Source: an uncultured bacterium (lineage in GTDB: Bacteria; Patescibacteriota; Saccharimonadia; UBA4664; SCTI01). Taken from it: 64,000 nucleotides of DNA. The translations under genes were made by a program, and so were the position numbers. The notes under the pieces were generated by a model that was not told the origin of the DNA, made no database searches, and saw nothing but the letters and a program-made list of their open reading frames with translations. The stretch covers positions 103,943 to 167,942 of the forward strand of contig CAVRJJ010000005.1 of assembly GCA_963721685.1 (NCBI GenBank), in the 5' to 3' direction. Of the stretch, positions 21,621 through 64,000 are shown in pieces (position 1 is the first letter of the stretch; each line of letters opens with the position of its first letter).

Positions 21621-21651
21621 GTCTGGTGGAGGCACCGGGAATCGAACCCGG
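21621..21651. repeat. 31-bp direct repeat copy 1 (tRNA 3' end: gtctggtggaggcaccgggaatcgaacccgg)
   Basis: 29/31 identical to 22598-22628; corresponds to T-arm plus acceptor 3' strand of the tRNA-like gene. Confidence 0.8.
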
Positions 21652-21695
21652 CCGACCCGAGTCGCGATCAGGTCACGACGCCAGTCTGTACCCCC
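21624..21695 (-). tRNA. tRNA-like element, degenerate or noncanonical (good acceptor/T-arm/CCA, no canonical D/anticodon arms in 72 nt); probable integration-site remnant
   Basis: Reverse complement GGGGGTA...CCGGGTTCGATTCCCGGTGCCTCCACCA; middle 31 nt cannot be folded into standard D plus anticodon arms; 10-bp complement between flanks tgtctggtgg/ccaccagaca. Confidence 0.35.
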
Positions 21696-41044: not shown

Positions 41045-41134
41045 TGGCGGAGAGGGTGGGATTCGAACCCACGATACCGTTGCCGGTATACCGCTTTTCG
41101 AGAGCGGCGCCTTCAACCACTCGGCCACCTCTCC
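41045..41134 (-). tRNA. tRNA-Ser (anticodon CGA)
   Basis: Manual fold: anticodon loop CTCGAAA, long variable arm, T-loop GGTTCGAATCC, CCA. Confidence 0.85.
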
Positions 41135-46247: not shown

Positions 46248-46324
46248 TGGTGCGCCCGGCAGGATTCGAACCTGCGACCTCCAGTACCGCAAACTGACGC
46301 TCTATCCAGCTGAGCTACGGGCGC
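46248..46324 (-). tRNA. tRNA-Arg (anticodon reads GCG)
   Basis: Manual cloverleaf: GCGCCCG acceptor, D GCTC/GAGC, anticodon loop TTGCGGT, T-loop TTCGAAT, discriminator A, CCA. Confidence 0.8.
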
Positions 46325-47036: not shown

Positions 47037-47126
47037 GGAGGGGTGTCCGAGTGGTTGAAGGAACCGGTCTTGAAAACCGGCAGGGTTGCAAGATCCTCGT
47101 GGGTTCGAATCCCACCCCCTCCGCCA
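47037..47126 (+). tRNA. tRNA-Ser (anticodon TGA)
   Basis: GGAGGGG acceptor, loop CTTGAAA, long variable arm, GGTTCGAATCC, CCA. Confidence 0.85.
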
Positions 47127-47242
47127 GCAATTGTGATAGTCTCGATCTTTTTTAGACGCAAGCCGGAAGTAGGCACAGCCGCATGTCAACTCATTGATTC
47201 AGCCCCTGCTCTCCTGTATGCTTTCATACTGTAACCGCCTAT

Positions 47243-47335
47243 GGAGAGGTACCCAAGTGGCTGAAGGGGCGGGTTTGCTAAACCTGTAGGGGGATGTAAG
47301 TCCCCGCGAGAGTTCGAATCTCTCCCTCTCCGCCA
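47243..47335 (+). tRNA. tRNA-Ser (anticodon GCT)
   Basis: GGAGAGG acceptor, loop TTGCTAA, long variable arm, AGTTCGAATCT, CCA. Confidence 0.85.
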
Positions 47336-48620: not shown

Positions 48621-49046
48621 TTATTCGCCGGCACCGGGAGCAAGCGACGAAGTAACGAAGTTTACTATGGCGTAGGCCAAAATCGCGACGATAATGCCAA
48701 TCACCGAATAGAGAATGGTATCTTTGGCTGAAGAAACATGTTCTTTATTACCCTGGGAAATAACGTAGCGCAAGCCACCGATAATCAACATGATAACGGC
48801 CACGGCACCCACTAGGAAAATGAGAATGTTGGCAATGGTGTGGAAGATACCACCGGCGCCAAACAAGTCGCCGCTGGTGCCTTTTGCTTGGGAACATTGG
48901 GCTCCGGCGTTAATAGGGTTCTCGGCAGAAGCCGGATCACTGCAGGTCTCTCCGGTAGTTTCACCGGCCAAGATCGCTGAGGGCAGAAAGCCGGCGGCAA
49001 CAATGCTGACCTTGAGCACCCTGTCGTTTAGAAGTAGTTTATTCAC
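48621..49046 (-). CDS. T4SS VirB2/TrbC-like pilin paralog P1
   Basis: Signal peptide, Cys-containing variable region, TM1 IANILIFLVGAVAVIMLIIGGLRYVISQG, loop, AKDTILYSVIGIIVAILAYAIVNFV TM2. Confidence 0.6.
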   Translation of the reverse strand: MNKLLLNDRVLKVSIVAAGFLPSAILAGETTGETCSDPASAENPINAGAQCSQAKGTSGDLFGAGGIFHTIANILIFLVGAVAVIMLIIGGLRYVISQGNKEHVSSAKDTILYSVIGIIVAILAYAIVNFVTSSLAPGAGE

Positions 49047-49119
49047 AATTTAATTTCCTTTTAAGTTGTTACGCTTATTTTGGTGCAATATTATCATAGT
49101 TTAATCCAGATGGCTACCA

Positions 49120-49518
49120 TCAAGGCTCGCGGGGCGGCGGGGGAGCCAAAGCTCCGGATACAAAATTAACGATCGCGTAGGCTAAAATCGCGACCACAAT
49201 CCCAATAATGCTATACAGCAGGGTGTCTTTAGCGGACTTAACTTGGGCCGCGTCGCCTTGGGAAATAACGTAACGCAATCCGCCAATGATCAGCATGATC
49301 ACGGCCACGGCACCCACCAGGAAAATAAGCAGGTTCGCGATTTGGGAAAAACTTCCCTGTAGGTCGCCCGAAACGCCAGCGGGTTTTGCATCCCTGGCAC
49401 CTTCGTCAATTTTTGTTACCGCCAGGGCCGATTGCGAGAGGGAAAGGCAAAAAAGCCCGGCCAAGAGTATTTTTTGCTTATACCGATTAATCATTAATCC
49501 TCCTTTATTACCCAACAT
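49120..49518 (-). CDS. T4SS pilin-like paralog P2
   Basis: Same architecture; GGLRYVISQGD...AKDTLLYSIIGIVVAILAYAIVNFV. Confidence 0.6.
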   Translation of the reverse strand: MLGNKGGLMINRYKQKILLAGLFCLSLSQSALAVTKIDEGARDAKPAGVSGDLQGSFSQIANLLIFLVGAVAVIMLIIGGLRYVISQGDAAQVKSAKDTLLYSIIGIVVAILAYAIVNFVSGALAPPPPREP

Positions 49519-49906
49519 TTTGACTCACAAACCGGACAATCGCGTAAGCCAAAACCACGACAATCAAACCGATAACGGCGTAAAGCAGCGTGTCTTTGGC
49601 GGCTTTAATCCTAGCCGCGTCGCCGGTTGAAGTAACGTAGCGAATGCCCGCTAAAATAATAATTATTACGGCAATGGCTCCGGCTACCAGCAGCAAGGTA
49701 TTGGTCACGTCTCCAAGAAAACCATTGTCACCGGTAAGTTCCTTTTGCCCGGTAATGTTGCATTTGCCATTAACAATGGTGCCGCCGGCTCCTTTGCACA
49801 GATTAATTTCTGTGGTTGTTGGAGGTGGAGGCGGCGGAGCTCCTGCAAAGGAAGCCCGCGACACGCCAAGCCAAAGCCCTGCCAGCAATAGCCCAATCCG
49901 TTGCAT
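49508..49906 (-). CDS. T4SS pilin-like paralog P3
   Basis: AGIRYVTSTGD...AKDTLLYAVIGLIVVVLAYAIV; poly-Pro after signal peptide. Confidence 0.6.
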   Translation of the reverse strand: MQRIGLLLAGLWLGVSRASFAGAPPPPPPTTTEINLCKGAGGTIVNGKCNITGQKELTGDNGFLGDVTNTLLLVAGAIAVIIIILAGIRYVTSTGDAARIKAAKDTLLYAVIGLIVVVLAYAIVRFVSQNVG

Positions 49907-50265
49907 TAAGCTATCTTCCCCACTACGAAGCCCACAATGGCCCGCGCCAAAATCACCACGATCAACCCGATAACCGCATAAAGGATGGTGTCTTTAGCGG
50001 CTTGGATGCGTTTGGCATCCCCCGTTGAGGTTATATAACGGATGCCGCCCATGATTAAAATCAGAACCGCGATGGCGCCCACCACAATGAATAGCGTATC
50101 TATTACCACATTGAGCTTTGTTGTAAGGGCGGTATCGCTGCAGGCCGCCGAACCCGCCACCGCTTTCAGCCCCTCGCATTGCTGGCTAGCGGCAAGGGCG
50201 CCTTGCGGGACAATCATAAGAATAAAAAGTCCGAGCCGCGTAAGTTTTTGCCGAATTGCTAACAC
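49906..50265 (-). CDS. T4SS pilin-like paralog P4
   Basis: GGIRYITSTGD...AKDTILYAVIGLIVVIL. Confidence 0.6.
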   Translation of the reverse strand: MLAIRQKLTRLGLFILMIVPQGALAASQQCEGLKAVAGSAACSDTALTTKLNVVIDTLFIVVGAIAVLILIMGGIRYITSTGDAKRIQAAKDTILYAVIGLIVVILARAIVGFVVGKIA

Positions 50266-50266
50266 C

Positions 50267-50677
50267 CTAGCCTCCTGCCGCGTGAATAATAAATGCCGAA
50301 ATCGGTACTGCCAGAAAGGTGACGATCAACCCGATAATAGCATAGAGCAGGGTATTCTTAGCGCTTTCTATACGAGTGGGGTCACCGGTTGAAGTGATAT
50401 AACGCACACCTCCCATAATGACAAAGATGAAGGAAACAATGCCAGCCGCGAACAAGAAAATATTTAAGAACACTTGGAAGTAGGTGAGCCCATCAGGGTC
50501 GCCATTGCTATCAAGCTTTTGGCCATCCGCGTCGCAGCCGCTCATGGCGGGAAGGGCGTCGCAAGCTTTCCCCACAATAGACGATGGCTTGCTGGCTGCC
50601 ACGGCAGGGGAGCTAGCGAAAATAAAACCACTTACCAACACTGTAAGAATAAGCATAAGATGTTTCATTGATTGCAT
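50267..50677 (-). CDS. T4SS pilin-like paralog P5
   Basis: GGVRYITSTGD...AKNTLLYAIIGLIVTFL. Confidence 0.6.
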   Translation of the reverse strand: MQSMKHLMLILTVLVSGFIFASSPAVAASKPSSIVGKACDALPAMSGCDADGQKLDSNGDPDGLTYFQVFLNIFLFAAGIVSFIFVIMGGVRYITSTGDPTRIESAKNTLLYAIIGLIVTFLAVPISAFIIHAAGG

Positions 50678-50710
50678 TGTAACTAAAACACCAGATAGGT
50701 GTCAAAAAGG

Positions 50711-51088
50711 CTAAGGGCTTTTAGCAATAATAAACCCAACAATAAAAGGAGCGAGCACCGACAGCAAAAGGCCAATCGAAGCGTAGATTAGCGTTTGTTT
50801 GGCTCCCTCAACCCGTTGGGCATTGCCGCTGGAAGCCGCGTAGCGTATGCCACCCAGGACCAGGAAAATTACCGACAGCACACCGGCAATCAGCGAAAGG
50901 GTATTAATAGCCCCCTTAGCTATATCGCTTGCCTTTACATTGGGAACATCAAGTTCGCTGGGGTCGTTGGCCAAACACCCGCTGGGGGGGCACTTAGCGT
51001 CGGGATCGGGAGCATCGGCAAAAGCCATTCCTCCCGCCAAAGTCAGGGAAACAAAGCCGCACATAAGCATAATAAAAAAGCGTTTCAT
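50711..51088 (-). CDS. T4SS pilin-like paralog P6
   Basis: GGIRYAASSGN...AKQTLIYASIGLLLSVL. Confidence 0.55.
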   Translation of the reverse strand: MKRFFIMLMCGFVSLTLAGGMAFADAPDPDAKCPPSGCLANDPSELDVPNVKASDIAKGAINTLSLIAGVLSVIFLVLGGIRYAASSGNAQRVEGAKQTLIYASIGLLLSVLAPFIVGFIIAKSP

Positions 51089-51402
51089 TCCAAACCTCTG
51101 GCGAGGAACTCAATTATTAAATAGGCTCCGGCGGATAACATAATTCCCACTACCGCGTGAATAAGTCCGGTTTTAGCCGCGGCGGTTTTGGCCGGTTCGC
51201 CCTGCGAAACAATGTAGAGAATACTGGCATAAATCACATAAATAACCGCCAAAATACCTATCAGCATGAGGAGGATTTCAACAACATTTGCTAAAATAAT
51301 GACGATTTGCTTAATACTGGTGAACTTAAGCTCCCCGGAACCATCCCGAGGGATGCCTTTATAGAGGTTGGGAAAGATATCGGCTAAGAGATGGGTATAC
51401 AT
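51085..51402 (-). CDS. pilin-like paralog P7, lacks signal peptide/Cys region (degenerate)
   Basis: ILYIVSQGEPAKTAAAKTGLIHAVVGIMLSAGAYLII core retained. Confidence 0.4.
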   Translation of the reverse strand: MYTHLLADIFPNLYKGIPRDGSGELKFTSIKQIVIILANVVEILLMLIGILAVIYVIYASILYIVSQGEPAKTAAAKTGLIHAVVGIMLSAGAYLIIEFLARGLE

Positions 51403-52056
51403 TTAAGAACTCGTAAACAGTTTAACATCCGGCGGCAGGATCATTTGAATCAGCCCGAACATAATTACAAACAAGACAAGGCCGGTAATTGCCCCTTTTA
51501 TCCGCTCTTTAGCTTCTTTGGCAATTTCAGGGTCATCGCCGGAAATAACGTACTGCAGCCCGGCAATCACCAGCACCAGCACAAGAATTACCCCAAAGAT
51601 TCCGGTTAAAAATTGCACGCCATATGCCACCAGAGCGAAAATCGGATTTTGGTCGCCGCCGCCGATGCAGCCGCCGGTTCCCAGGGCCTTGCTTACCTTA
51701 ACCCCTTTGCCGGTACAACCGCCGGCGCTGGGGTTGGCCGCCCGGTCGTTGCGACCGCTTTCAGCCCCTTTATCGTACGACTTGTTGCAGGATGTAAGCT
51801 TTGCCCCACGTAAACTGGAGGGCTTACACAGCGCGCTCTTGCTAACACCCCCCTCGGTGTAACCACCTACGAATGCCTTTTTGCACTGCGTTTCACTTAC
51901 CTTGGTTGAAGTGGGGGCGTTGGGGTAACTTCGGCAAAAGTCATTGGCCTGTTCGGTTTTGGAGGCTGGCGCGGCCGAAGCCGTTTCGGTAACCAGAACC
52001 CCGGGAACTCCCAAGGTCATAACCAGCACCATAAGCTGCAGAAGATAACGTTTCAT
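51403..52056 (-). CDS. pilin-like paralog P8 with long Cys/Gly-rich extracellular region
   Basis: Signal peptide, 8 Cys, AGLQYVISGDDPEIAKEAKERIKGAITGLVLFVIMF. Confidence 0.5.
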   Translation of the reverse strand: MKRYLLQLMVLVMTLGVPGVLVTETASAAPASKTEQANDFCRSYPNAPTSTKVSETQCKKAFVGGYTEGGVSKSALCKPSSLRGAKLTSCNKSYDKGAESGRNDRAANPSAGGCTGKGVKVSKALGTGGCIGGGDQNPIFALVAYGVQFLTGIFGVILVLVLVIAGLQYVISGDDPEIAKEAKERIKGAITGLVLFVIMFGLIQMILPPDVKLFTSS

Positions 52057-52108: not shown

Positions 52109-55087
52109 ATGGTGCATTTCGGGGTAAAATCCATTACACTTATGCTTATGAAGAGGAGTAATTCCCGAGTACTCGCGGCGCTCGCCGTCTACCTGTTCGC
52201 GATGGTGGCATCTTTGCTCGTGCCCCTGTTTGCGCAGCCCGCGCAAGCAGCCACGGTAGAGCGCGACTGGGTAATGGTTTTCCCAACCGATAGGGAAGTG
52301 TTAGCTGAAATGAACCGGGAGCTTAGCACGGGCGTTACATCACAGCCTGGTTTTTCCCCGGGTCTGAGCCAAACCTATGTAATGCATAAAAACGACTTAT
52401 GGGATCCGGCCGGGTTTCGTAAGTTTAGCTTTAACCGGGCAGCATCGGACCAAGCAAATTTCCGTTTTTACGCCTTTACCACCTCTTATTACTGTGCCAA
52501 CGATAAAGTAGTTAAATCCAAGCCTTCATCGGGTGACTATTCATTTGTGGAGCTAAAGCTGAACGCGGTTATTAAGGCCGGTTTTGCCAGCACGCCGCCG
52601 CCCACCCACGACACGACCCTTACCGTTAAGCGCTTCACCCACTACAACTCAGCGGGCACCGGGGTGGATTACGAGGTTGGCAACAAAACCAAAACCGGAA
52701 CCCTGCAGCAAGTCGCCCGGCACCGCAGTTGTATGCCCGGGGAAACCGTCTTTTCCCCGACGTCGAGCGCCAGCGACCTATTTGCAATCCGTAATATTAA
52801 AGATCCGGCGGTAAACGATTCCACCTGGGCAAACGCCAAAGACAAGGTACGAGACCAAGTGGAAGCCGACCCGATTACCGGCTCCGACCCTTCGGCGGGT
52901 GGCGGGGGCAGCACCGGCTCAACCGGGGCCGACACCGACCAAGGAGACCAGTGCCCCCGAAAAGCCTTTAACTTTGGCTGGTTGATTTGCCCGGCGCTTG
53001 AACTGGTTAATAATCTCTTTGTGCAAAATTTCCAAAAATTTATGGCTGGCGCTCTCAGCATTGACCCCTTAGACCAAAACGGCGCCGATAAAAATATCTA
53101 CCTGGTATGGAAAAACCTTCGCGACCTCGCGAATGTGCTGTTCCTGCTTATTTTCATGATAATTGTGCTAGCCAACACCCTCTCCATTAATGTGCAGACC
53201 TACACCATTAAAAAGATGATCCCCAAACTGGTAGCGGCGGCGATACTGGTCCAGTTTTCCTTTATCATCAGCGCGGTCATTATAGACGTGGGTAATATCT
53301 TAGGGGATGGCATAGGCGACCTCATTAAGAGCGTGGCAAATACACCGGGAGGCACAAACGATAAAGCCATTGATGGCTTCTTCCAGAACTCCGCCGCCGC
53401 CATAACCGCGGTGGTGGGGGGAGGCTTAATTGTCGGTTCCGCGATTGCCACATCGGGAGCAACGGTTGGTGTGGCGATTGGTGCCATAATACTCGTCGGA
53501 ATAACCGCCTTCTTCGCGTTTTTGTCTATTCTCCTAACCCTCGTGCTGCGGAAGATGATAATCATCATTCTCATTATCGTTTCCCCGCTGGCATTCGCGG
53601 CCATGGTCCTTCCCAGCACCGACAAGTTCTTCAAGATATGGCTGGAAACGTTCATTAAAGTAATTATGATGTACCCGATCATCGTGTTTATGTTTGGGGC
53701 AGCCACCGTTTTGCAAAAAGCCGTGAGTGGCGGCGAAGGCGGCGTGGGCGATGACGCGGGACTGGTAAAAATAATGGCGGCGGCTATGCCAATTGTGGCG
53801 TGCTTTATGGTTCCGAAAGCCTTCGCCTGGGGAGGAAAGTTAATGAGTGGCGGATCTAACGCCATTGACAGTCTGGTGCGCGGTAAGATTGGCGGCAAAG
53901 CCACCGCTAAATTCAAAGCAAGCGACGCCTATACCGTTCCTCGGGCCTTGCGTGAGGGCAACAAGCAAGAAAAAACCGAAGGCCACGCGGGCTTGGACGG
54001 CAAAGATCCCCTCAGCAGGTACCGGCGCTATAAGGCTGGCGTTAAGCTTAGGGGTGACTACCTTGGGGGGAACCGGACCATAGCAAAGGGCGCGGATGGC
54101 AAGTACTGGCATATTGATCCTGATACTGGGAAAAGAACCTTAAATAAATATGGAGATATGTCACGCATGCAGACTAAGCAAAGAAACGCTTATTTGCAAA
54201 AAGGCATTGATGCCAACAAAGAACTTGACCGGAATGAAATACTTGGTCTCTTAGATCCGATGCGACAGGGTGCTCAACACGGAGACTTCAAGGACATTAA
54301 AGAGAATCCGCTGCTTTATGACCAAATGGTGAATGGCATTGGTAGCTATATTGAAAAAGAAGGCAAGCTTCCTTACGCCGAAGCACTCGATGATTTGGCA
54401 GACTTAGGGCATGCCCTCGGTAAAGGTAGTGAAAAGATAGGAATGGACAGGGACTTCCTGATGAGCCGGGACCATAAAGTAGCAGAGGCTCACCCCGTTT
54501 CATCGGAAGGTGCCCAAGTAATGCCGACCGCGCAAAGAGTCGAGCTGAATGACGACGGAACTACTAAAGTTGCCAATAAAGAGTTCCATGGCGTAGAGGG
54601 CTCAGAAGCTAAAAAAGCCACGGTCTTTAAAGAAGGAAGCCATGCACATGAAGATATCAAGAGAAAATTTGGCGCTGAAACATTCATGGGCGATAACCAC
54701 GAACAAGCGGTGGATCAGCTCGCCCACAATTATGTCCAAACTTCTTCAGGAGAACAACAGCGCCTTCTCGACCACCTGCTCGCGGACGATAATAATAAAT
54801 TCGTTCTTCATAACCTAAGAACAACCCCCACCGCCTACCGTAACGTAAAACCCGAAACGGCCGCTGCGGTCGTAAGTCACGCAAACAAGTCCTTGGCTCG
54901 CCTTGGACATCTTAAGTCGACTGGACCTAGTAACGACCAAGAAAGAGCGGAGCTGGCCCTCCTCACCAAAAATGAAAGTAGCTATATAGTTGCCTCCCAT
55001 TTTCAGGACGACCTTACGCAATATAATGACGAAGCCGGTAAGACTGGATCAAAACTCAATCTTGCACTGGAGGATCTAAGGTCATAA
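52109..55087 (+). CDS. VirB6/TrbL-like polytopic T4SS membrane protein with large N-terminal extracytoplasmic domain and C-terminal hydrophilic tail (992 aa)
   Basis: Signal/TM, then >8 TM helices in aa ~330-600; first gene of plus-strand T4SS operon; TAATG coupling to next gene. Confidence 0.5.
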   Translation: MVHFGVKSITLMLMKRSNSRVLAALAVYLFAMVASLLVPLFAQPAQAATVERDWVMVFPTDREVLAEMNRELSTGVTSQPGFSPGLSQTYVMHKNDLWDPAGFRKFSFNRAASDQANFRFYAFTTSYYCANDKVVKSKPSSGDYSFVELKLNAVIKAGFASTPPPTHDTTLTVKRFTHYNSAGTGVDYEVGNKTKTGTLQQVARHRSCMPGETVFSPTSSASDLFAIRNIKDPAVNDSTWANAKDKVRDQVEADPITGSDPSAGGGGSTGSTGADTDQGDQCPRKAFNFGWLICPALELVNNLFVQNFQKFMAGALSIDPLDQNGADKNIYLVWKNLRDLANVLFLLIFMIIVLANTLSINVQTYTIKKMIPKLVAAAILVQFSFIISAVIIDVGNILGDGIGDLIKSVANTPGGTNDKAIDGFFQNSAAAITAVVGGGLIVGSAIATSGATVGVAIGAIILVGITAFFAFLSILLTLVLRKMIIIILIIVSPLAFAAMVLPSTDKFFKIWLETFIKVIMMYPIIVFMFGAATVLQKAVSGGEGGVGDDAGLVKIMAAAMPIVACFMVPKAFAWGGKLMSGGSNAIDSLVRGKIGGKATAKFKASDAYTVPRALREGNKQEKTEGHAGLDGKDPLSRYRRYKAGVKLRGDYLGGNRTIAKGADGKYWHIDPDTGKRTLNKYGDMSRMQTKQRNAYLQKGIDANKELDRNEILGLLDPMRQGAQHGDFKDIKENPLLYDQMVNGIGSYIEKEGKLPYAEALDDLADLGHALGKGSEKIGMDRDFLMSRDHKVAEAHPVSSEGAQVMPTAQRVELNDDGTTKVANKEFHGVEGSEAKKATVFKEGSHAHEDIKRKFGAETFMGDNHEQAVDQLAHNYVQTSSGEQQRLLDHLLADDNNKFVLHNLRTTPTAYRNVKPETAAAVVSHANKSLARLGHLKSTGPSNDQERAELALLTKNESSYIVASHFQDDLTQYNDEAGKTGSKLNLALEDLRS

Positions 55088-55938
55088 TGGGTACCTATAA
55101 AGTTCCTCAAGATGTTGAGTCCGACGATAAGATCTTAGGGCCGTTAAGCATGAAGCAGTTCATCTATGCCATGATCGGCATAGGCTACGGGCTGTTAACC
55201 TTCGCGATTTTAAAATCAGTTATCATCATTTGGATCCTGGTGGGTGTTCCGCCCATGCTCGCGCTACTGGCACTTGGTTTGTACCAGAAAAAAGACCAGT
55301 CAATGGAAACCTACATTGTCAGCATCATCCAATTTATCGTCCGGCCAAAAGTCCGCTATTGGCAAAAGGAGCCAATTGCCGAAGTGTTCCACCTTGAACC
55401 GCCGCCGCCAAAACCGGCCATGGAAATGCGAGATTCGCGTAAAGTCCGCAGCCAGCTGGCGCAGCTAGCCAACGTGGTAGACACCCGCGGCTGGTCGGTT
55501 AAGCATCCCGAGCTGCAAGAGCTCCAGGAGCTGCACGATTTACCAACGGTTGATCTTGGTGGCAGGGTTGGCGGCGGCCAGTTAGGCGGCCCATCCACCG
55601 TGGGAATGGAGCCGCCGGAGGTTAGCGACGAGGATGACATGCTAAGCTCCACTACCACCAAAGCCGGGGAGTTGGACGCGCTGATTGCCAATAGCGTTAA
55701 AAGCCTACGCGCCGAGGTAATGGAGGGCATGGCAGCCGGCCATGTTCCAGGGGACGCTCCTGCCCTCTCAAGCACAAGCGGGATGACAGTGGCCCCATCT
55801 GGTGATATACTCAAATTAGCCGCGGAGGGTGGGGATTTGTCAGTTGCCCAAATTGCTGCCCAAGCCCACCGCTTTAATCAACCAACCGCCGAAGGGCAGC
55901 AAGTGAGCGTGCAGAATGCCAACAGCCAACCAGCCTAA
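55087..55938 (+). CDS. VirB3-like small membrane protein (2 TM near N-terminus) with disordered C-terminal tail
   Basis: FIYAMIGIGYGLLTFAILKSVIIIWILVGVPPMLALLALGLY; position immediately before VirB4. Confidence 0.45.
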   Translation: MGTYKVPQDVESDDKILGPLSMKQFIYAMIGIGYGLLTFAILKSVIIIWILVGVPPMLALLALGLYQKKDQSMETYIVSIIQFIVRPKVRYWQKEPIAEVFHLEPPPPKPAMEMRDSRKVRSQLAQLANVVDTRGWSVKHPELQELQELHDLPTVDLGGRVGGGQLGGPSTVGMEPPEVSDEDDMLSSTTTKAGELDALIANSVKSLRAEVMEGMAAGHVPGDAPALSSTSGMTVAPSGDILKLAAEGGDLSVAQIAAQAHRFNQPTAEGQQVSVQNANSQPA

Positions 55939-56659
55939 TCCCGCCCCCAAGCCCAGCACCCAAGATACACTGCTGATTTCCGAAATCCGCGACGGGGTAG
56001 TGGTGATGCGCGACGGTAGCTTACGCAATGTGCTTATGGCCAGCGCGGTAAACTTTGACCTTATGAGCGCGGGCGAGCGTGAAGGGGTGGAGTACGCCTA
56101 CCAAAGCTTCTTAAACTCGCTGCACTTCCCTATTCAAATTGTGGTTAAGTCGCAGCGGCTGGAGCTTGAAAGCTATATTGCCAATCTCCAGCAACTTCAA
56201 ACCGAGCAAGACAACCCGATGCTCGCTAATTTAATGGATGACTACATTGCCAATATCTTCAACCTGATTGACCAAGTTAATATCATGGATAAGCAGTTTT
56301 ATGTGGTAGTGCCGTTTTATCCGCCCGTGGTGGATAAAATTGCCAAAAAGAATATTGTCTCGAGCATCGCGGGATCATTTAAAAAAACCACTGTTACCAC
56401 CGTTAATGAAACCGACTTTAACGCTTATAAAGAAGAGCTGGCCCAGCGCGTGGGGTTGGTTTCCAGCGGTTTGGGGCAAATGGGGGTTCGTAATATCCCC
56501 CTCAACACCCAGGAATTGATTGATTTGTATTACTCCGCCTACAACCCGGACGCGGCTGAAAACCAAAAGCTGGTTGAGGCCGCCCAATTGCAAACCGCGG
56601 CGGTTACCAAGGGTGAGGGTGAGGCGCCGCGCCACTTGGCCGGCGGAGGGCCGTACTAA
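55916..56659 (+). CDS. probable VirB4 N-terminal domain encoded as separate ORF (247 aa), TAATG-coupled to ATPase ORF
   Basis: Length plus 621 aa = canonical VirB4 size; no TM; overlaps upstream gene by 23 nt in +1 frame. Confidence 0.4.
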   Translation: MPTANQPNPAPKPSTQDTLLISEIRDGVVVMRDGSLRNVLMASAVNFDLMSAGEREGVEYAYQSFLNSLHFPIQIVVKSQRLELESYIANLQQLQTEQDNPMLANLMDDYIANIFNLIDQVNIMDKQFYVVVPFYPPVVDKIAKKNIVSSIAGSFKKTTVTTVNETDFNAYKEELAQRVGLVSSGLGQMGVRNIPLNTQELIDLYYSAYNPDAAENQKLVEAAQLQTAAVTKGEGEAPRHLAGGGPY

Positions 56660-58524
56660 TGGGGGTGTTTGGCGGCAAAAAACCAGTTAATGACCCCATT
56701 GCGCTAGCCGAAGCCCAGAGGGCCAAAGAACAGCAGGAAGCCGAGGCCATTTACCGGCAGGGCATTGTGAGCCTGCGCGATCTTATAGCGCCGCCCAGTT
56801 TGCAGGTAACGGCCGACCACATCCAAATCGGTACCCGCTTCGCCCGGACATTATATGTGTACGGCTATCCCCGCCAGATTTTTACCGGATGGTTAAGCCC
56901 CCTGGTAAACCTTGATGAGGTCATGGACCTAAGCATGTTCATTATGCCGGTCGAAAGCCAAATTGTATTAAACAACCTGAGACGCAAAGTAGGCCAACTG
57001 GAGGCCAGCTACAGTATTAACCAGGAAAAAGGCCGGGTGCGCGATCCCGGCTTAGAAGCGGCCATTATGGACGCCGAGGAGCTGCGCGATAAGCTGCAAG
57101 TTGGTGAGGAGCGGTTTTTCCGCTTTGGTTTATATGCCACCATCTACGCCGACAGCCTGGAAGAGCTCAAGGACGTTCAGCGTAAGATTGAGGGTATTTT
57201 TGGGCAATCGCTGGTTTATACCAAAGCCGCGACCATGCAGATGGAGCCGGGCTTTAATTCTACTCTGCCGCTCGGCACCGACCAGCTTCAAGTAGCGCGC
57301 AACATGGACACCAATGCCCTTTCTACCAGCTTTCCGTTCACCTCAGCCGAACTCAGCCGCAACGAAGGCGTGCTCTACGGTATTAACCGTCACAACAATG
57401 GGCTGGTGCTATTCGACCGATTCAGCCTGGAAAACGCCAACATGGTGGTATTTGCAAAATCCGGAGCCGGTAAAAGCTTCGCAATTAAACTTGAGGCCAT
57501 CCGGAGCTTAATGCTGGGCACTGAAATTCTGGTTATCGACCCCGAAGATGAGTACCGGGCGCTATGCGAAGCCGTTGGAGGCAGCTACTTGCGCCTAAGC
57601 CTAGCCTCCGACAATCGGCTTAATCCATTCGACCTTCCTAGAGTCCTCGACAGTGAAGACGCCGACAATGCCCTGCGGGCCAACATTATCACACTGCACG
57701 GCTTATTGCGCCTGATGATGGGAGGCCAAGCCGCGCCGCTCGGTCCGGCCGAAGACGCCGACTTGGATGTGGCACTCATTAATACCTACGCTAAAGCCGG
57801 CATTACCAACGACCCCCTTACCCACGGTGCCACCCCGCCCACCATGAACGACCTGCATAAGACTTTGTCGGAAATGAGCGGCAACGGTCCCGCGCTGGCC
57901 CAGCGCCTGCGCCAGTACACTACCGGAACATTTGCCGGCATCTTCTCGGAACAATCAAACGTTGACCTCTACAACAAGTTTGTGGTGTTCAACATCCGTG
58001 ACCTGGAAGACGAGCTGCGCCCGGTTGGGATGTACATTGTTCTTAACTACATTTGGAACAAAGTAAAAAGTGACAAGAAGAAGCGCATCCTAATTGTGGA
58101 TGAAGCCTGGCAGCTCATGAAGTTTGAAGATAGCGCTAACTTTATGTTCAGCATTGCCAAGCGAGCCCGAAAATATTTCTTGGGCCTGACCACCATCACC
58201 CAGGATGTCGACGACTTTCTAAGCTCGCGGATGGGCCGCGCGATTGTATCCAACTCATCACTGCAGCTGCTGCTGAAGCAAGCCCCCAGCTCAGTGGATA
58301 TTATTGGCGAAACCTTTAAGCTAACCTCTGAAGAAAAAACCCGGCTTACCACGTTCCCGGTTGGAGAAGGCCTGTTCTTTGCCGGCCTTAACCACGTGGT
58401 GATGCGTATCCTAGCCTCCGAGACCGAAACTCGGCTGATTACCACCAACCCCCAGGCGGTAGCCAAGCAGGAGGCAGCCACACAGGCATACAGAGAGGCC
58501 CAGCAGGAAATAGCGGGGGGCTAA
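56659..58524 (+). CDS. virB4: VirB4/TraC/CagE-family T4SS ATPase (C-terminal ATPase domain)
   Basis: Walker A VVFAKSGAGKSFAIK, Walker B KKKRILIVDEAWQLM. Confidence 0.8.
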   Translation: MGVFGGKKPVNDPIALAEAQRAKEQQEAEAIYRQGIVSLRDLIAPPSLQVTADHIQIGTRFARTLYVYGYPRQIFTGWLSPLVNLDEVMDLSMFIMPVESQIVLNNLRRKVGQLEASYSINQEKGRVRDPGLEAAIMDAEELRDKLQVGEERFFRFGLYATIYADSLEELKDVQRKIEGIFGQSLVYTKAATMQMEPGFNSTLPLGTDQLQVARNMDTNALSTSFPFTSAELSRNEGVLYGINRHNNGLVLFDRFSLENANMVVFAKSGAGKSFAIKLEAIRSLMLGTEILVIDPEDEYRALCEAVGGSYLRLSLASDNRLNPFDLPRVLDSEDADNALRANIITLHGLLRLMMGGQAAPLGPAEDADLDVALINTYAKAGITNDPLTHGATPPTMNDLHKTLSEMSGNGPALAQRLRQYTTGTFAGIFSEQSNVDLYNKFVVFNIRDLEDELRPVGMYIVLNYIWNKVKSDKKKRILIVDEAWQLMKFEDSANFMFSIAKRARKYFLGLTTITQDVDDFLSSRMGRAIVSNSSLQLLLKQAPSSVDIIGETFKLTSEEKTRLTTFPVGEGLFFAGLNHVVMRILASETETRLITTNPQAVAKQEAATQAYREAQQEIAGG

Positions 58525-58527
58525 GCA

Positions 58528-61500
58528 ATGCAGCCAACGCTTTCCCCACAAGATGATGAGGAGCTCGATAACCCGGTTGACGACCATGACGCACTGGGGG
58601 AGGAGGACAACGCACCCTATAGCGATCTGCCGCGCAGCCACCAGCCGGCATCTTCACGCTTCCAGGATGATGCCCAGCGCGGTTTAGATGATATCCCGGT
58701 ACAAGACCCGGCCCACCGCAGCAACCGCCCGGGCGATGGAACAGCCAGGGCCAGTGATGGATCGCCCCTGCCGGGAGGACCCGCCAGCGAGGTCTCATCC
58801 ACGAAAAAAGGCGGGGTGAGTGACGAAGATGGCCCGGAGGGTGAAGAGGGCGAAAAACCAAAGCCCAAAACATCTGCCTACAAGAAATATAAAAGATACA
58901 AGCTGGCCAAAAATACCGCTAAGGCCATGCTGGGCAGCAGGCGGGCGATTTTCGGACTAATCTTCAGCGGCAGCATCATTGGTTTACTGATTGGCGGATT
59001 TTTTCTCCTAGCCCCCTTCAAGCTGATGTTTATGAAAGAAAACATCGATCAAGTCCGGATGGCGCGGATGTATTACATCTTGGATAGGCGCAGCGACCGG
59101 TTCCTGGTAACCATGCTAAAAGCCGAGATAGCGGGCGAAGACGCTGGCGGCCAAAACCGCTACTTTATTGCAAAGGGCTGGGTTGGATCAGAAAACCCCT
59201 TCACCCAGTGGTATAAAGACATGAGAACCGACAAGTTTTTTGAGCAAATGGAGCGCACCCAGGGCGTCCGCTTTATTCGCGAAAAACCGGCGGGTGGCGG
59301 CAAAGACCGCCTGGTAAAACTAAATGTTCGGGGCGAAATAATCGACTTTAGCGCCATAACCAACGATGGCGGCATGGTTTTTGAAGACACCGAACGGTTT
59401 GAGCGGCTGGTAGACACGCGCTACGCGAGCAACAAGGAAGCTCGCCGGGCCTGGAACGGAGCGGTTAAAGACGCCACCAAACGCCACCAGATCATCATGC
59501 GTTATACCATGCGTAAGTGGGGAAGGGAGCGTCTGGGTATTACCAAGTGGCGCTTTTTCGAAAACACCCGAGAGAAAGCCGACGACAAGGTGAGGGCGAC
59601 ATGGAATAAATCCGTCCGTAAGGCCGCGATCAGCGGCAAGGCCATCCGCTGCTTATTTGATGTGGGGCCGTGCCCCGACAGCGACAGCCTAAACGACAGC
59701 GACAACGCGACCGGCGCCCCCGACCCGGAATTTGAACAGGCCGCCAACGAAGCCGATGCCGAGGCGGAACAGGATAGCACGCCCGAAAATCCCAATGACC
59801 CCAGCAAATCGACCCGGCTGTTCGCGAAAAAGATTGTTTTAAAACTCATTCCGTTTGTAAACATTGCGGAGATAATTGACCTCGCGATGCATGTTGACAA
59901 GATGTTTGAAGAAAAGAAGCTGTCTAAAATGGTTGCCGCCTATCGCGCCGCCGAGTACGCGAGCGCCTATTTTACCTTCTCAACCCTTACCGACAACCTT
60001 AAGGCCGGCAAGGACGTGAGCGGCCCGGAGGCTGGCGCGGCGCTAGCGATGTTTAACGGTATGGAAAATAGCGACGGCTACCTGCAAGTTACCAAAAATT
60101 CATCGAGCACCGCCTTCCTTCCCAGCCTGAATAAGGCCTATGCCGCGGATTCTAACCCTATTGATCGGGTTGATGATTCATTCCGCGTTAATGGGTCATC
60201 AAACGCCTCAAAATTTGAAGCCCTTTACGAAAAAACGGTTGGCAAAATTCTTCGCCCCATCCTCAGGGAATGTGACGGACTTATCAATTTCTGTACTATC
60301 GCCAGCAAAATATCCGGCGTTATCGGATCGGTTATTGAAACGATTCTTAAGCCGCTGGTCGCGGTGGCCGCTCCGGTGGGAGGGTTCCTTTTTAGCGCGG
60401 TAGCCGGACAAAGCCCCCAAGAGGCGATGCAGGGAGTAATGGCCGATGCCACGGTTTTCATGGCGGGCTCATCAAAGTGCTCTACAAAATCAGTGAAAGA
60501 ACAGGAAAAAACCGGCAGGGGCGGTGGCCGCCTATTCAATTGTGTTGATGGGGGAGCATCGGTAATAACCGAGGCGGTAACGCAAAATATGGGTGGCGGG
60601 CCCGCCACCACCGTGACCATTAACGAGCTCAACGCCAACATCGCCCAGGCAAAGAGGGAGGAAGATACCGGTAGAAGCCTGTGGGACAAGATCGCTTCCT
60701 TAGAACGAGGGGATTCTTTGGTAGCCAAGCTCATTATGCGCGGCCCGTCATCCGGCAAAGAGCTGGCGGCAAACTTCCAGGGTATGCTTGCCTACATCAA
60801 CCCGGTCAACCTTTTAGATGCCGGCGGTGCCAGCATTGTGGCTCTTTCCAGCCAGCCTTCTTACGCTGATATATTAGATGACAATATGTACGGGGTGGCC
60901 CGGTACGCCGTAAGCGAAGAGGACCTTGCCAAAGAGCCTTATGGCAGCAAGAGCAAAGCCGAATGCGACAAGGAAATGGCCGAATACAAGACCGCCATGG
61001 AGGCCGGCGGCAGCCCCCCAACCAGCATGTGTACGCTGGACTCCGAGGTTGCCAACTCTCTTGCTTGCCTTAATAGTGAAGACCCCGATTGCGCCAGGGT
61101 AGGCGAGCAGGCCATGACACCCTGTCTTGCAGAGCAATCTACCGTAACCAGCCTAACCGGCCAAGCGCCCGTGGATGCCCCTGGCCAAAACCGAAAAATC
61201 GTCCTTATTGGTGATTCACTACTAACGGGTGCCGATGAAACCGGCGACCTCGGGGGCCGGCTTGAGGCCAAAGGTTTCAACGGCGTGGATATCGTAATTG
61301 AGGCATCAAACGGACGCTCAATAACCGGCGCTGGTACCAGCGGGAGCCGGCTTTCCGGGGAAGAGGCGGTTGAGCAGCTGGGCGAGCCTGGCGGGGCAAT
61401 CGACGGCGCCTCCGTGGTTGTGGTGGAGTTAGGCACAAACACCAGCGGAACCCCAGCCCAATTTAAGGCCCAGGTGCGCAAACTTGTTGAATCGATAAAA

Positions 61501-62268
61501 AACGCGGACAAAGAAAGTGATGCCCTAATTTATTGGGTAAGTATTGTGTCCAAAAAAGATGCCAGGTACGCCGCTTATAACGAGGCGATCGAAGAAGTCG
61601 CGGAAAGCGAAAATATCTCGGTAATTACCCCCAAGGACATTAGCCTGAACGCCGATAAAATCCATCCGACACCGGAAGGATATAAAAAGTACGCCCAAGC
61701 CATTGCCGGCGCGGTTGACGCCGACGGTTTAGGTGACGCGGCCAAGCCCGACTGTGGCAACCCGGATGACGCGGTTATTGCCGGCGACGCCCAAGAGATA
61801 GCGGGAAAGCTAAAAGAACTAATGGGCGGAAGCTCGCCGAAGGTGCTTGGCGACAGCCGTTACCTTAAGCAAATTACCAATATTGCTGACGGCAAAGCTG
61901 GCTGCAATGTTGACGAGGCCATCCTTAAGTTGATATATGGCATGACTACTAAAGGCTACCAAGTGAGCATTTCCTCCTTAAACCGCTTTTGCACAAAGGT
62001 GCTGACCGCCTCTGGCGAGGGAAGCAACCACTATAGAAATGGCGGCGGCCACGCGGTGGACTTTCAGGCGGTAAACGGGCAGGCGGTAAATGGCGGGAGC
62101 GCCTTATCGATCAAGTTTATTAAGGATATGGAAGATTTTATGCTAGACGGGACTGAGCTGGGGCAAGTAAACTGCCGCTCGGAACAATTAAGCTTCAGCA
62201 AAAAAGTAAGCCAGGTAAACGACTCTTGCAACCACATTCATGTCGGCTTTGAGCGAGGAGCAGAATAG
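58528..62268 (+). CDS. 1246-aa membrane-anchored multidomain cell-wall hydrolase: acidic disordered N-terminus, one TM, SGNH/GDSL esterase domain (~61190-61700), C-terminal M15-like zinc-peptidase-like region
   Basis: SGNH blocks read directly: IVLIGDSLLTG, ASNGRS, ELGTNT, DKIHPTPEGY; C-terminus SNHYRNGGGHAVDF...NHIHVGF resembles M15/VanY His-Asp-His pattern (weak). Confidence 0.6.
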   Translation: MQPTLSPQDDEELDNPVDDHDALGEEDNAPYSDLPRSHQPASSRFQDDAQRGLDDIPVQDPAHRSNRPGDGTARASDGSPLPGGPASEVSSTKKGGVSDEDGPEGEEGEKPKPKTSAYKKYKRYKLAKNTAKAMLGSRRAIFGLIFSGSIIGLLIGGFFLLAPFKLMFMKENIDQVRMARMYYILDRRSDRFLVTMLKAEIAGEDAGGQNRYFIAKGWVGSENPFTQWYKDMRTDKFFEQMERTQGVRFIREKPAGGGKDRLVKLNVRGEIIDFSAITNDGGMVFEDTERFERLVDTRYASNKEARRAWNGAVKDATKRHQIIMRYTMRKWGRERLGITKWRFFENTREKADDKVRATWNKSVRKAAISGKAIRCLFDVGPCPDSDSLNDSDNATGAPDPEFEQAANEADAEAEQDSTPENPNDPSKSTRLFAKKIVLKLIPFVNIAEIIDLAMHVDKMFEEKKLSKMVAAYRAAEYASAYFTFSTLTDNLKAGKDVSGPEAGAALAMFNGMENSDGYLQVTKNSSSTAFLPSLNKAYAADSNPIDRVDDSFRVNGSSNASKFEALYEKTVGKILRPILRECDGLINFCTIASKISGVIGSVIETILKPLVAVAAPVGGFLFSAVAGQSPQEAMQGVMADATVFMAGSSKCSTKSVKEQEKTGRGGGRLFNCVDGGASVITEAVTQNMGGGPATTVTINELNANIAQAKREEDTGRSLWDKIASLERGDSLVAKLIMRGPSSGKELAANFQGMLAYINPVNLLDAGGASIVALSSQPSYADILDDNMYGVARYAVSEEDLAKEPYGSKSKAECDKEMAEYKTAMEAGGSPPTSMCTLDSEVANSLACLNSEDPDCARVGEQAMTPCLAEQSTVTSLTGQAPVDAPGQNRKIVLIGDSLLTGADETGDLGGRLEAKGFNGVDIVIEASNGRSITGAGTSGSRLSGEEAVEQLGEPGGAIDGASVVVVELGTNTSGTPAQFKAQVRKLVESIKNADKESDALIYWVSIVSKKDARYAAYNEAIEEVAESENISVITPKDISLNADKIHPTPEGYKKYAQAIAGAVDADGLGDAAKPDCGNPDDAVIAGDAQEIAGKLKELMGGSSPKVLGDSRYLKQITNIADGKAGCNVDEAILKLIYGMTTKGYQVSISSLNRFCTKVLTASGEGSNHYRNGGGHAVDFQAVNGQAVNGGSALSIKFIKDMEDFMLDGTELGQVNCRSEQLSFSKKVSQVNDSCNHIHVGFERGAE

Positions 62269-62282
62269 TGGGTGGGCTTAAG

Positions 62283-64000
62283 ATGGTGGCGCCCCCCACG
62301 AGGGTCCACGGCTGGCGCTACGGCCTGTGCTGGGCGCTCATTATAGCGCTTAGCATGCTGGTGCCGGCGCAAGCGCTGGCCATCAGCAAGGCCGACAAAG
62401 AAGCCGTGCTGTATGACACCCCGTACTACGACCCCACCCAATGCCAGGAAGCTCCGGCGCAAGACCTAACCACCGACCCCAAAGGCTCAAGCTCCCAAGA
62501 GAAAGCCTTTGATTTTTACAAGAAACAGGGCGTAAGCGCTGAAGCGGCGGCCGGGATTGTTGGCAACCTTATTGTAGAGTCGGGCGCCAAGCTCAACACT
62601 AGGGCAACCAACGGTAGCCACTGGGGCATAGTGCAGTGGGATGCCGGCCGCTATGCCAAGATGCAAAAATACGCCAAAGACAACAACATGAGCGAATTCA
62701 ACCTGATCGCGCAACTGGAATATTCCTGGATAGAGGCAAAACAAAGGAATGTTCCCGAAGCCATGCGTTCGGCCGACACCCCTGAAAAAGCCGCCGTGGT
62801 GTGGGAAAATCTAGTTGAAAACTGCGGCTGCACCATAGACAAGCGCAAAACCGAAGCCGCGAAGGTGTTTAAAAAATATGGTCGATCTGCCGCGCCTGAC
62901 GACGATGCCGACACCGGTTCCAGCGTTGACCCCATTAACCCACGCTTAAGCTTGGCGGAGGTAGCTAATAAACACAGCCTACATTCAGCAATTATCAAAG
63001 AACTTGATGGCGACACCATAGGAAAATATAAAGCCACTACCGCGCCCAATGCCCCGGGCAGCACAATGAAGCTCATAATTGTAGATGTTGTTTTACAAGA
63101 CGAGCTGAGCCTAAATAAAACCCTTCGCGTATCAAGCGAGTTGCATTACGGCGGGGACAACGACCTGGGCGGCAACACCATATCGGTTCGTGACGCGATC
63201 AAAGCCACTCTTGGAGCCTCCAGTAATGTCGGGGCAAATGTTTTAATAAAAGCGCTGGGTGGCGTAGACGCGTTTAGCACAAAGGCCCATAAATACGGCT
63301 ACACAAAAACCACTATGGAAGAGTATTATCAGCCCGGTCCTGACAACAATACCAGCACGATTCGCGACCAGGCCGAAGCTATGAGCCGGATTTTTGACGA
63401 AACCGGCGAGGGCTACAAAATTGCGCAGAAGGCCTTGCAGGACGCCGCCAACGGAGAGGGCAACCACTTTAATGTTGAGGGAGTGATTGCCACTAAAGGG
63501 GCGTGGACCGACGAGGTGGCGGGCAATGTTGGTAAGTTTAAAATCAGCAACAAGGATTATATAATTGGCTTGTACTACGAGGGTAATTCATCCTCGGAAG
63601 CGGCCAAAAAGGCTATCCGTGAGGGGTCGGCCGACTTGGTCAAGCTAATTAAGACAGGGATACCCTCGAGCGCGGACAGCATAATCGCCAGCTGCTGCCC
63701 GAACGTAGCCACCGACGGCACTCCGGGAAACTCCAACGGTTCGGATGCCGGGGTGTGGAGCAGCGGCCTTAGCGCTCCCTTTATTGTGGAACAATACGCG
63801 ATTGAGGTGCTGAAGAACTTAGCAAAAAAGAAGGGGGTTGAGGAATCGAAGGCTGTTACCAAAGAGCACGTGCTCGCGCTGGTTACCTGGGTGCTTCTAG
63901 AGGGCGGTGATATCGCAAACGACGGCCGCTTTAACCTGTACAATACCGGCAAATCAGCGCCCGAGCTTAACGACGGCGCGCACACCGCTAACGGGCTTGG
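62283..64000 (+). CDS. secreted protein, partial (no stop in window): phage-tail-lysozyme-like domain plus class-A beta-lactamase/PBP-like serine hydrolase domain (SxxK, SxN, KTG)
   Basis: Own translation from ATG 62283: signal MVAPPTRVHGWRYGLCWALIIALSMLVPAQALA; AAAGIVGNLIVESG motif; STMK (63067-63078), SSN, KTG motifs; absent from ORF track. Confidence 0.6.
   Translation, partial: MVAPPTRVHGWRYGLCWALIIALSMLVPAQALAISKADKEAVLYDTPYYDPTQCQEAPAQDLTTDPKGSSSQEKAFDFYKKQGVSAEAAAGIVGNLIVESGAKLNTRATNGSHWGIVQWDAGRYAKMQKYAKDNNMSEFNLIAQLEYSWIEAKQRNVPEAMRSADTPEKAAVVWENLVENCGCTIDKRKTEAAKVFKKYGRSAAPDDDADTGSSVDPINPRLSLAEVANKHSLHSAIIKELDGDTIGKYKATTAPNAPGSTMKLIIVDVVLQDELSLNKTLRVSSELHYGGDNDLGGNTISVRDAIKATLGASSNVGANVLIKALGGVDAFSTKAHKYGYTKTTMEEYYQPGPDNNTSTIRDQAEAMSRIFDETGEGYKIAQKALQDAANGEGNHFNVEGVIATKGAWTDEVAGNVGKFKISNKDYIIGLYYEGNSSSEAAKKAIREGSADLVKLIKTGIPSSADSIIASCCPNVATDGTPGNSNGSDAGVWSSGLSAPFIVEQYAIEVLKNLAKKKGVEESKAVTKEHVLALVTWVLLEGGDIANDGRFNLYNTGKSAPELNDGAHTANGL

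Follow-up and report, generated by a model that had tools for sequence, protein, structure and literature searches.

What does a penicillin-recognising serine enzyme do inside a secreted cell wall hydrolase that is encoded beside a type IV secretion system (T4SS)? This question is raised by an open reading frame (ORF) at the 3′ end of a 64,000-nucleotide stretch of DNA from an uncultured bacterium of the Saccharimonadia (contig CAVRJJ010000005.1, positions 103,943 to 167,942; hereafter the window). An earlier interpretation, made from the letters alone and called here the sequence-only reading, had proposed a signal peptide, a lysozyme-like domain and a serine hydrolase with the motifs STMK, SSN and KTG in a protein at the end of a T4SS operon, which might cut and then re-seal or bind peptidoglycan, or act as an effector against a host cell wall. 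After profile searches, structure prediction and comparison with related loci, we consider it likely that the ORF encodes an enzyme that is exported by the Sec pathway, is dedicated to the T4SS and degrades peptidoglycan, with a serine module for cutting D-Ala-linked peptide bonds.

The frame is uninterrupted on the plus strand from 62283 to 64000 (572 codons), contains no stop and runs off the end of the window, as had been described. Its extension, which the sequence-only reading had called for, is provided by the database protein P0001 (868 aa), which is 100% identical over the entire in-window stretch. Frame and database match together define a partial ORF at 62268..64000 (plus strand) that holds the first 577 of the 868 codons of P0001, while the other 291 fall past the window end. 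P0001 starts at a GTG at 62268, and the ATG at 62283 is its codon 6. Since the GTG overlaps the upstream TAG (62266-62268) by one base and has an AGGAG 7 nt upstream (62256-62260), it is probably the true start rather than the ATG. The start/stop overlap with the preceding gene for a 1246-aa protein (TAGTG), together with the AGGAG (both within 62256-62270), suggests translational coupling of the hydrolase to this gene. The remaining T4SS genes also overlap or abut (at 55087, 55916-55938, 56659 and 58524-58528). A Sec signal peptide is predicted from the sequence at aa 1-38 (62268..62381, plus strand), with an R-rich basic n-region MGGLKMVAPPTRVHGWRYG, a hydrophobic core LCWALIIALSMLV and a cleavage region that reads PAQALA (A-Q-A-L-A) followed, after the putative cut, by IS. 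All 16 homologues in an alignment share this signal-peptide-like layout, and the N-terminus appears typical of a Sec signal peptide, in agreement with the earlier prediction.

The AlphaFold2 model of full-length P0001 reveals four folded modules with disordered linkers between them, in the order PF18013 lysozyme-like module, class A beta-lactamase-fold serine hydrolase, GH73/FlgJ-like lysozyme fold and NlpC/P60-like Cys/His peptidase. Both domains of the sequence-only reading are therefore real, but they make up only part of the protein. When Pfam was run on both halves, as had been suggested, PF18013 and PF13354 were both found above their cut-offs. The first module (PF18013, Phage_lysozyme2; aa 77-204, 62496..62879, plus strand) matches profile positions 3-140 of 140 with 83.6 bits and an E-value of 1.9e-23 (gathering threshold 28.2 bits), and the lysozyme-like motif noted before, AAAGIVGNLIVESG, falls inside this match. 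The module is helical in the model, with a predicted local distance difference test (pLDDT) score of 77-94, and E104 in 'VESG' (62577-62579) is its candidate catalytic Glu.

The second module (aa 228-464, 62949..63659, plus strand) was assigned to the class A beta-lactamase fold by Pfam, Foldseek and hhalign. Its match to PF13354 (Beta-lactamase2) reaches 52.8 bits with an E-value of 4.3e-14 (gathering threshold 22 bits), and it is modelled with a pLDDT of 81-94. In a Foldseek search against the PDB, the module aligned with GES, TEM and CTX-M enzymes with a template modelling (TM) score of 0.73 over approximately 262 columns at 15-18% identity, and with the mycobacterial penicillin-binding protein (PBP) homologue Rv2911 with a TM score of 0.68. 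Profile matches to the DD-carboxypeptidases 4p0m and 4rye in the PDB had E-values of about 4e-8 to 2e-7.

To place the active site, we judged its geometry via the secondary-structure placement of the motifs in the model and the alignment to TEM-1, and counted motif conservation in an alignment of 114 near-full-length copies of the module. A first local hhalign run against TEM-1 and an hmmsearch of the PDB both ended before the third motif. Because the local alignment stopped short of this motif, a global-mode hhalign with the deeper 114-sequence profile was needed, which aligned the family with TEM-1 at a probability of 96.9 over 232 columns. The first motif, S265-T-M-K268 (63060..63071, plus strand), supplies the nucleophile Ser and the general-base Lys at the start of helix H265-277, and corresponds to S70-x-x-K73 on helix alpha2 of class A enzymes; S265 is kept in 112 of 114 copies and K268 in 111. 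The second motif, S318-S-N320 (63219..63227, plus strand), lies in the loop before helix 320-329 and is equivalent to S130-D-N of class A, with S318 kept in 113/114 and N320 in 104/114. The STMK and SSN of the sequence-only reading are thus genuine family motifs.

The third motif is not the one proposed before. The KTG of the sequence-only reading, K462-T-G (63651..63659, plus strand), is situated at the end of the last helix (H444-464), where hhalign pairs 'ADLVKLI' with the C-terminal 'ASLIKHW' of TEM-1 and K462-T-G starts directly afterwards, outside the class A fold. The Lys is present in 28 of 114 relatives, and shuffling of the downstream sequence yields KTG in 14% and K[ST]G in 28% of cases. 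Its position past the end of the fold, the 28/114 conservation and the 14% of shuffles indicate that this tripeptide arose by chance, and it was rejected as an active-site motif. The true third motif is T-K410-G-A-W (63492..63506, plus strand) on strand beta3 (E406-413), which pairs with K234-S-G of TEM-1 ('IATK410GAW' with 'IADK234SGA'). K410 is kept in 108/114 copies, the family consensus is N-K-W-[G/A]-G, and the position after the Lys is W in 65/114 and I in 22/114, in contrast to the K-[T/S]-G of class A. As far as the model allows, motifs 1 and 2 and K410 therefore occupy the right class A elements, and KTG does not.

The deacylation base of class A beta-lactamases is Glu166 on the omega loop. 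In P0001, the corresponding column holds Q355 (63330..63332, plus strand) or, depending on the alignment, the adjacent Y354, and there is no Glu among the residues listed for the Q355 column in the 114 relatives (S 54, D 21, N 17, K 8, H 5, R 2). With no equivalent of Glu166 and a non-canonical third motif, the module cannot be classed as a beta-lactamase. If it were nevertheless a genuine class A enzyme that confers antibiotic resistance and is fused by chance to a lysozyme, this would account for the Beta-lactamase2 match, the class A fold and the name 'beta-lactamase class A' that JGI gives to one relative. We regard this explanation as highly improbable, since the NCBIfam model bla_class_A (NF033103) scores only 32.2 bits where 200 are required, the module is no more than 15-18% identical to real enzymes, and it lies in a T4SS and lytic-domain context, in addition to the two active-site differences. 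In comparison with class A enzymes (TEM, GES, CTX-M) and Rv2911 (M. tuberculosis, PDB 4p0m), the module thus shares the fold (TM 0.68-0.73) and the placement of S-x-x-K on helix alpha2, of S-x-N in the loop after it and of the Lys on strand beta3. It differs from them in its 15-20% identity, the absence of Glu166, a third motif that reads K-G-A (in the family K-W-[G/A]) where they have K-[T/S]-G, and its embedding in a lytic multi-enzyme protein.

The same two departures, a third motif without the canonical Thr/Ser and no Glu166 equivalent, might instead suggest that the module is not catalytic but binds peptidoglycan or acts as a targeting domain, and in this way brings the glycosidase modules into position. 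Multidomain T4SS hydrolases can contain degenerate modules, of which the LytM domain of PrgK is an example. However, although the 114 copies are only 25-58% identical, 91-99% of them retain the nucleophile Ser, the two Lys and the S-x-N Ser and Asn. Without catalysis, this degree of conservation would be difficult to account for, and we consider it quite unlikely that the module only binds. Together with the PF18013 match and the predicted export, these data uphold the core of the sequence-only reading, namely a presumably secreted protein in which a serine enzyme of the penicillin-recognising fold is fused to a lysozyme-like domain.

The two modules that had not been recognised before follow downstream. 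The third (aa 495-690), of which only the first part lies in the window (63750..64000, plus strand), continues past its end and is modelled with an all-alpha, GH73/FlgJ-like fold. Neither a Pfam match (PF01832 included) nor a PDB sequence match was obtained for aa 495-690, and the module is best described from its model as a cryptic GH73-like lysozyme fold that escapes the PF01832 profile. E545 of 'LEGGD' (63900-63902) is invariant and caps a helix. The fourth module (aa 712-868) lies outside the window and resembles NlpC/P60 peptidases with C756 and H823 as the putative catalytic Cys/His pair; these residues align with those of the NlpC/P60 hydrolase 7cfl (E-value 1.6e-3), and the segments 'DCGxFV' and 'GHTxIYVG' are invariant. 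Weak matches to Amidase_5, NlpC/P60 or CHAP recur across family members, and Amidase_5 passes in the relative P0003 (25.4 bits vs 21). The hydrolase of the related locus L005 passes CHAP (35.9 bits vs 26), a domain for which we claim no homology to the C-terminal module of P0001.

The linker between the second and third modules (63660..63749, plus strand) is rich in Gly, Ser and Thr and modelled with a pLDDT below 50. It carries a conserved 'CC' dipeptide, C476-C477 (63693-63698). Across 56 relatives, CC occurs 29 times in the Gly/Ser/Thr-rich interdomain linkers of 24 proteins, compared with 3.4 occurrences expected from shuffling, usually in the context [GST]x-C-C-[PS]. The linker that follows has a single Cys, C704, which all members of the 16-sequence alignment share. 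The CC pair could form a disulfide staple, mark a site of processing or bind a metal.

Relatives of the beta-lactamase-fold module were sought in 1.84 billion cluster representatives, which yielded only 137 at an E-value of 1e-3 or lower and 93 at 1e-10 or lower; a second profile search, of a 5.8-billion-protein set, gave one further member only. In the 56 relatives, Beta-lactamase2 is the constant module (55/56). Its partners are PF18013 (25), M23 (12), GDSL (8), SLT (5), C39-like (4), NlpC/P60 (4), CHAP (3) and Rpf-type transglycosylase (3), with amidase, 3D and glucosaminidase as single cases, and every one of them acts lytically on peptidoglycan. The combination that the sequence-only reading had called uncommon is indeed rare in the sense that the whole branch is, with its 137 members in 1.84 billion; within the branch, though, PF18013 with Beta-lactamase2 is the commonest architecture (25/56). 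Database entries of the relatives bear the labels 'serine hydrolase', 'beta-lactamase class A' and 'D-alanyl-D-alanine carboxypeptidase', the second of which is probably wrong for this branch.

Several weaker members of the family are giant proteins of 2,000-7,770 aa (the longest, P0113, has 7770 aa), and both scanned members above 3,000 aa turned out to be phage tape-measure proteins: P0080 (3252 aa) combines TMP_3 with Beta-lactamase2, and P0087 (4118 aa) combines TMP_3, M23 and Beta-lactamase2. The module copies in P0080, P0087, P0113 and other giant proteins carry the motifs S-T-I-K, S-D-N and K-I-G. When the full P0001 model was compared with predicted viral structures, the best matches were virion-associated wall hydrolases. 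Among 50,697 deposited phage genomes, tblastn with the module of the window found no match, and tblastn of a tape-measure-borne copy against deposited phage genomes gave one good match, in Microcoleus phage My-WqHQDG, and five partial ones; deposited phage genomes carry the module rarely. P0001 thus resembles phage virion-associated hydrolases (lytic modules of tape-measure proteins, tail lysozymes, phi29 gp13) in its set of modules, drawn from PF18013, M23, NlpC/P60 or CHAP and GH73-like, and the same beta-lactamase-fold branch occurs in tape-measure proteins of 3,000-4,100 aa (P0080, P0087). Unlike these lysins, it is encoded on the chromosome in a T4SS operon, has its own Sec signal and is not part of a virion.

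The composition of the family also bears on the re-sealing that the sequence-only reading had envisaged. A DD-transpeptidase that re-crosslinks the wall after the lytic cuts would be in line with the occurrence of transpeptidases among penicillin-recognising folds and with a sub-threshold match of P0001 to Pfam Transpeptidase (E-value 1.7e-3, 18.1 bits vs 22.1). Nevertheless, the module is matched best by class A beta-lactamases and by DD-carboxypeptidases of low molecular weight rather than by high-molecular-weight PBPs; all partner domains in the family are lytic; and the module also occurs in phage tape-measure proteins, where there is no reason for wall repair. Re-sealing is consequently very unlikely, while the cutting of peptidoglycan, possibly that of the host, fits all the evidence. 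The Pfam scan of P0001 gave no Peptidase_S11 or S13 match; weak matches to S13 were seen in 7 and to S11 in 2 of the 56 relatives.

Upstream of the hydrolase, the genes of the T4SS follow one another on the plus strand. They encode a 992-aa polytopic protein with a weak TrbL/VirB6 match (52109..55087), PrgI (VirB3-like; 55087..55938), a TrsD/TraD-like protein (55916..56659), a VirB4-type ATPase of the NCBIfam CD1110 family (56659..58524, E-value 6e-112) and the 1246-aa protein (58528..62268), in which Pfam identifies a GDSL/SASA esterase module at aa about 890-1060. The T4SS operon inferred from the letters is therefore present, but it probably does not end with the hydrolase, as it continues in the relatives. 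Five related loci were found, all in metagenome-assembled genomes of Candidatus Saccharimonadales. A look-up with the exact P0001 sequence returned no record of the downstream DNA, and the context beyond the hydrolase was taken from three of these loci (L003-L005). These three, which have enough flanking sequence, share the order PrgI, a gene of approximately 250 aa, VirB4, a protein of approximately 1000-1230 aa, a hydrolase of approximately 850 aa and a small PEGA/Big_5 protein. The hydrolase sits one gene downstream of VirB4 in the window as in L003, L004 and L005. The small exported proteins 3′ of it contain PEGA or Ig-like Big_5 domains (L004 11793-13072, L005 11832-12509); their equivalent here is expected just past the window end and may have a partner or inhibitor role.

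The same position in the epibiont Ca. Southlakia epibionticum ML1 is occupied by a known wall hydrolase. The T4SS cluster of ML1 comprises SEML1_0006-0019 (Wang et al. 2023, PMC10633639), and the locus in the window is exactly collinear with SEML1_0011 to SEML1_0005. Both show the order VirB6-like (the 992-aa protein being the positional counterpart of SEML1_0011), PrgI, TrsD-like, VirB4, a protein of approximately 1100-1250 aa and the hydrolase, followed in ML1 and L004 by PEGA. Every gene from SEML1_0011 to SEML1_0005, including SEML1_0006, was scored GD/ES/ES by transposon sequencing (PMC10633639 Tables S1/S2). SEML1_0007, to which the 1246-aa protein corresponds by position, was annotated by structure as carrying a DD-peptidase (M15) fold, and SEML1_0006 as two lysozyme-like domains plus a cysteine proteinase (PMC10633639); the essential SEML1_0005, next after the hydrolase, is a PEGA protein. 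According to PMC12102498, VirB1 is probably replaced by the homologues of peptidases and lysozymes that are encoded downstream of virB4.

The ORF is the positional counterpart of SEML1_0006, a gene that ML1 needs for growth as an epibiont. In contrast to P0001, SEML1_0006 lacks the beta-lactamase-fold module and arranges its domains in another order, and the second of its lysozyme-like domains can be recognised as a PF01832 glucosaminidase. The PF18013 module of P0001 is 39% identical to that of P0017, a SEML1_0006-like protein, while hhalign of the middle and C-terminal modules of P0001 against P0017 revealed no homology. Because of this, the correspondence is positional and architectural, and by sequence it extends to PF18013 only.

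Comparison of the window with L003 shows how differently the parts of the locus evolve. VirB4 is 90% identical, the TrsD-like protein 75% and PrgI 55%, whereas for the hydrolase the identity falls to 41%, over 64% of its length and with the domains in another order, and for the large neighbour no similarity was detected. Compared with the secretion machinery, the wall-active genes turn over much faster, by replacement or reshuffling. The 1246-aa protein is likewise without detectable similarity to its positional counterparts, although the adjoining VirB4 is 66-90% identical, and from these sequences the very large neighbour gene looks as if it has been replaced like a cassette. Only the GDSL/SASA module is recognisable in it, while its counterparts (L004, ML1 SEML1_0007) end in VanY/M15. 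We suspected an M15/VanY C-terminus from SNHYRNGGGHAVDF and discarded the idea, as neither Pfam nor PDB sequence matches nor a BLASTP similarity to the VanY C-terminus of L004 was found.

This rapid turnover raises the possibility of a host-directed lytic effector, which, in the manner of a phage tail lysin, would act mainly on the wall of the host actinobacterium at the contact site and open it for the T4SS pilus or for nutrient release, instead of aiding assembly of the system in the wall of the producer. The difference between VirB4 (90%) and hydrolase (41%), the free shuffling of partner domains among relatives and a set of modules known from virion-associated lysins that attack from outside are all consistent with it. 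Moreover, two very large multi-enzyme proteins seem excessive for a single thin wall, and the T4SS of ML1 is essential specifically for epibiotic growth (PMC10633639). On the other hand, no immunity gene was identified. VirB1-type hydrolases in general evolve fast, and to our knowledge, all characterised T4SS hydrolases of monoderms (PrgK, TraG, CwlT, TcpG) act on the donor's own wall. We therefore hold a mainly host-directed role to be possible, though clearly less probable than a function as the dedicated wall hydrolase of the T4SS. The host wall nevertheless remains a serious candidate as an additional target, based on the rapid turnover and the phage-lysin-like module set, neither of which is decisive.

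The hydrolases of monoderm conjugation systems, PrgK (pCF10), TraG (pIP501), TcpG (pCW3) and CwlT (ICEBs1), offer the closest functional comparison. They combine an SLT, muramidase or glucosaminidase domain with a papain-clan CHAP or NlpC/P60 domain and are required for T4SS function. We know of none among the four that has been reported with a serine module of the penicillin-recognising fold or with PF18013. Like the ORF product, they are encoded in a T4SS operon and exported or anchored; P0001 has four modules, whereas they have two or three. P0001 is encoded in a T4SS cluster near virB4, is predicted to be exported and contains both glycan-cleaving and peptidase modules, which are the features of the VirB1 class, and by analogy it may be functionally equivalent to VirB1, PrgK, TraG (pIP501), TcpG and CwlT. 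Following the logic of PMC12102498, where monoderm T4SS hydrolases of the PrgK/TraG/TcpG/CwlT type are described, it differs in that it is not retrieved by VirB1, TrsG or CD419 profiles.

For the T4SS-dedicated hydrolase that we favour, the following mechanism can be envisaged. After export, the two glycosidase-type modules would cut glycan strands, while the NlpC/P60-like and serine modules would cut stem peptides. The serine module would act as a DD-peptidase, either a carboxy- or an endopeptidase, and form an acyl-enzyme on S265 with the participation of K268, S318, N320 and K410. Jointly, the modules would open a local gap in the wall, through which the T4SS channel or pilus has to pass. 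The wall in question would, by analogy with conjugative systems, be the cell's own, and quite possibly also that of the actinobacterial host.

Several points weigh against this interpretation. The third motif reads K-G-A (family K-W-[G/A]) rather than K-[T/S]-G and does not offer the hydroxyl that usually binds the substrate carboxylate; the substrate could therefore differ from the canonical D-Ala-D-Ala terminus. The C-terminal module of P0001 itself stays below the Pfam threshold (Amidase_5, 18.5 bits vs 21). Essentiality was demonstrated only for a positional counterpart that by sequence shares no more than PF18013. Finally, that the enzyme is catalytically active, and which bond and which wall it attacks, is our inference; the domain identities, motif conservation, fold, synteny and essentiality of the counterpart are what has been shown.

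A further, more speculative idea concerns the branch as a whole, which is shared by Saccharibacterial T4SS hydrolases and giant phage tape-measure proteins. The module with K-W-[G/A] and without Glu166 might represent an undescribed branch of the penicillin-recognising enzymes for breaching foreign walls from outside. In Saccharibacteria, it would then be a host-wall DD-endopeptidase, whose shuffling tracks the host peptidoglycan and sets the host range. We put this forward only tentatively, as somewhat less probable even than a host-directed effector.

Two other features of the window lie outside the operon. An array of eight consecutive genes for VirB2-like T4SS pilins is located on the minus strand at 48621..52056, divergent from the operon. 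Each of these ORFs (105-217 aa) has a match to PF18895 (T4SS_pilin), in some cases together with one to TrbC/VirB2. In its divergent arrangement, the array resembles that of S. epibionticum ML1, which is essential, and the 'VirB2 arrays' described in PMC12102498. In addition, six tRNA genes are present (21468-21695, 41045-41134, 46248-46324 and 47037-47335), four for tRNA-Ser (gga, cga, tga, gct) and two for tRNA-Arg(gcg).

A wall hydrolase at this position of a Saccharibacterial T4SS is already known and is essential in ML1 (PMC10633639, PMC12102498); for this reason, the general finding is not new, and only the beta-lactamase-fold module is. Our literature search found nothing specific on beta-lactamase-fold modules in T4SS hydrolases, in hydrolases from the candidate phyla radiation (CPR) or in tape-measure proteins. 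In particular, it returned no description of such a module as the constant core of the hydrolase in one lineage, of its atypical third motif or missing Glu166, or of a lytic module of the penicillin-recognising fold in tape-measure proteins.

Attachment to host bacteria is the way of life of Saccharibacteria and other CPR bacteria, and their T4SS is essential for it. Among the components of the cluster that are essential, least is understood about the two large wall-active proteins whose genes come just after virB4. In one lineage of Saccharimonadales, the constant core of the second of these proteins is a serine enzyme on the beta-lactamase fold, from a branch that also occurs in phage tape-measure proteins. 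The hypotheses that result concern DD-peptidase activity, specificity for the host wall or the own wall, and inhibition by beta-lactams. The finding should be useful for work on CPR epibiosis and on the penicillin-recognising superfamily, in which it draws attention to a distinct branch of small size (137 cluster representatives in 1.84 billion). If the branch does serve to breach foreign walls, module shuffling would be a determinant of epibiont host range, and inhibition by beta-lactams, if true, could give a chemical handle on the attachment of epibiont to host.

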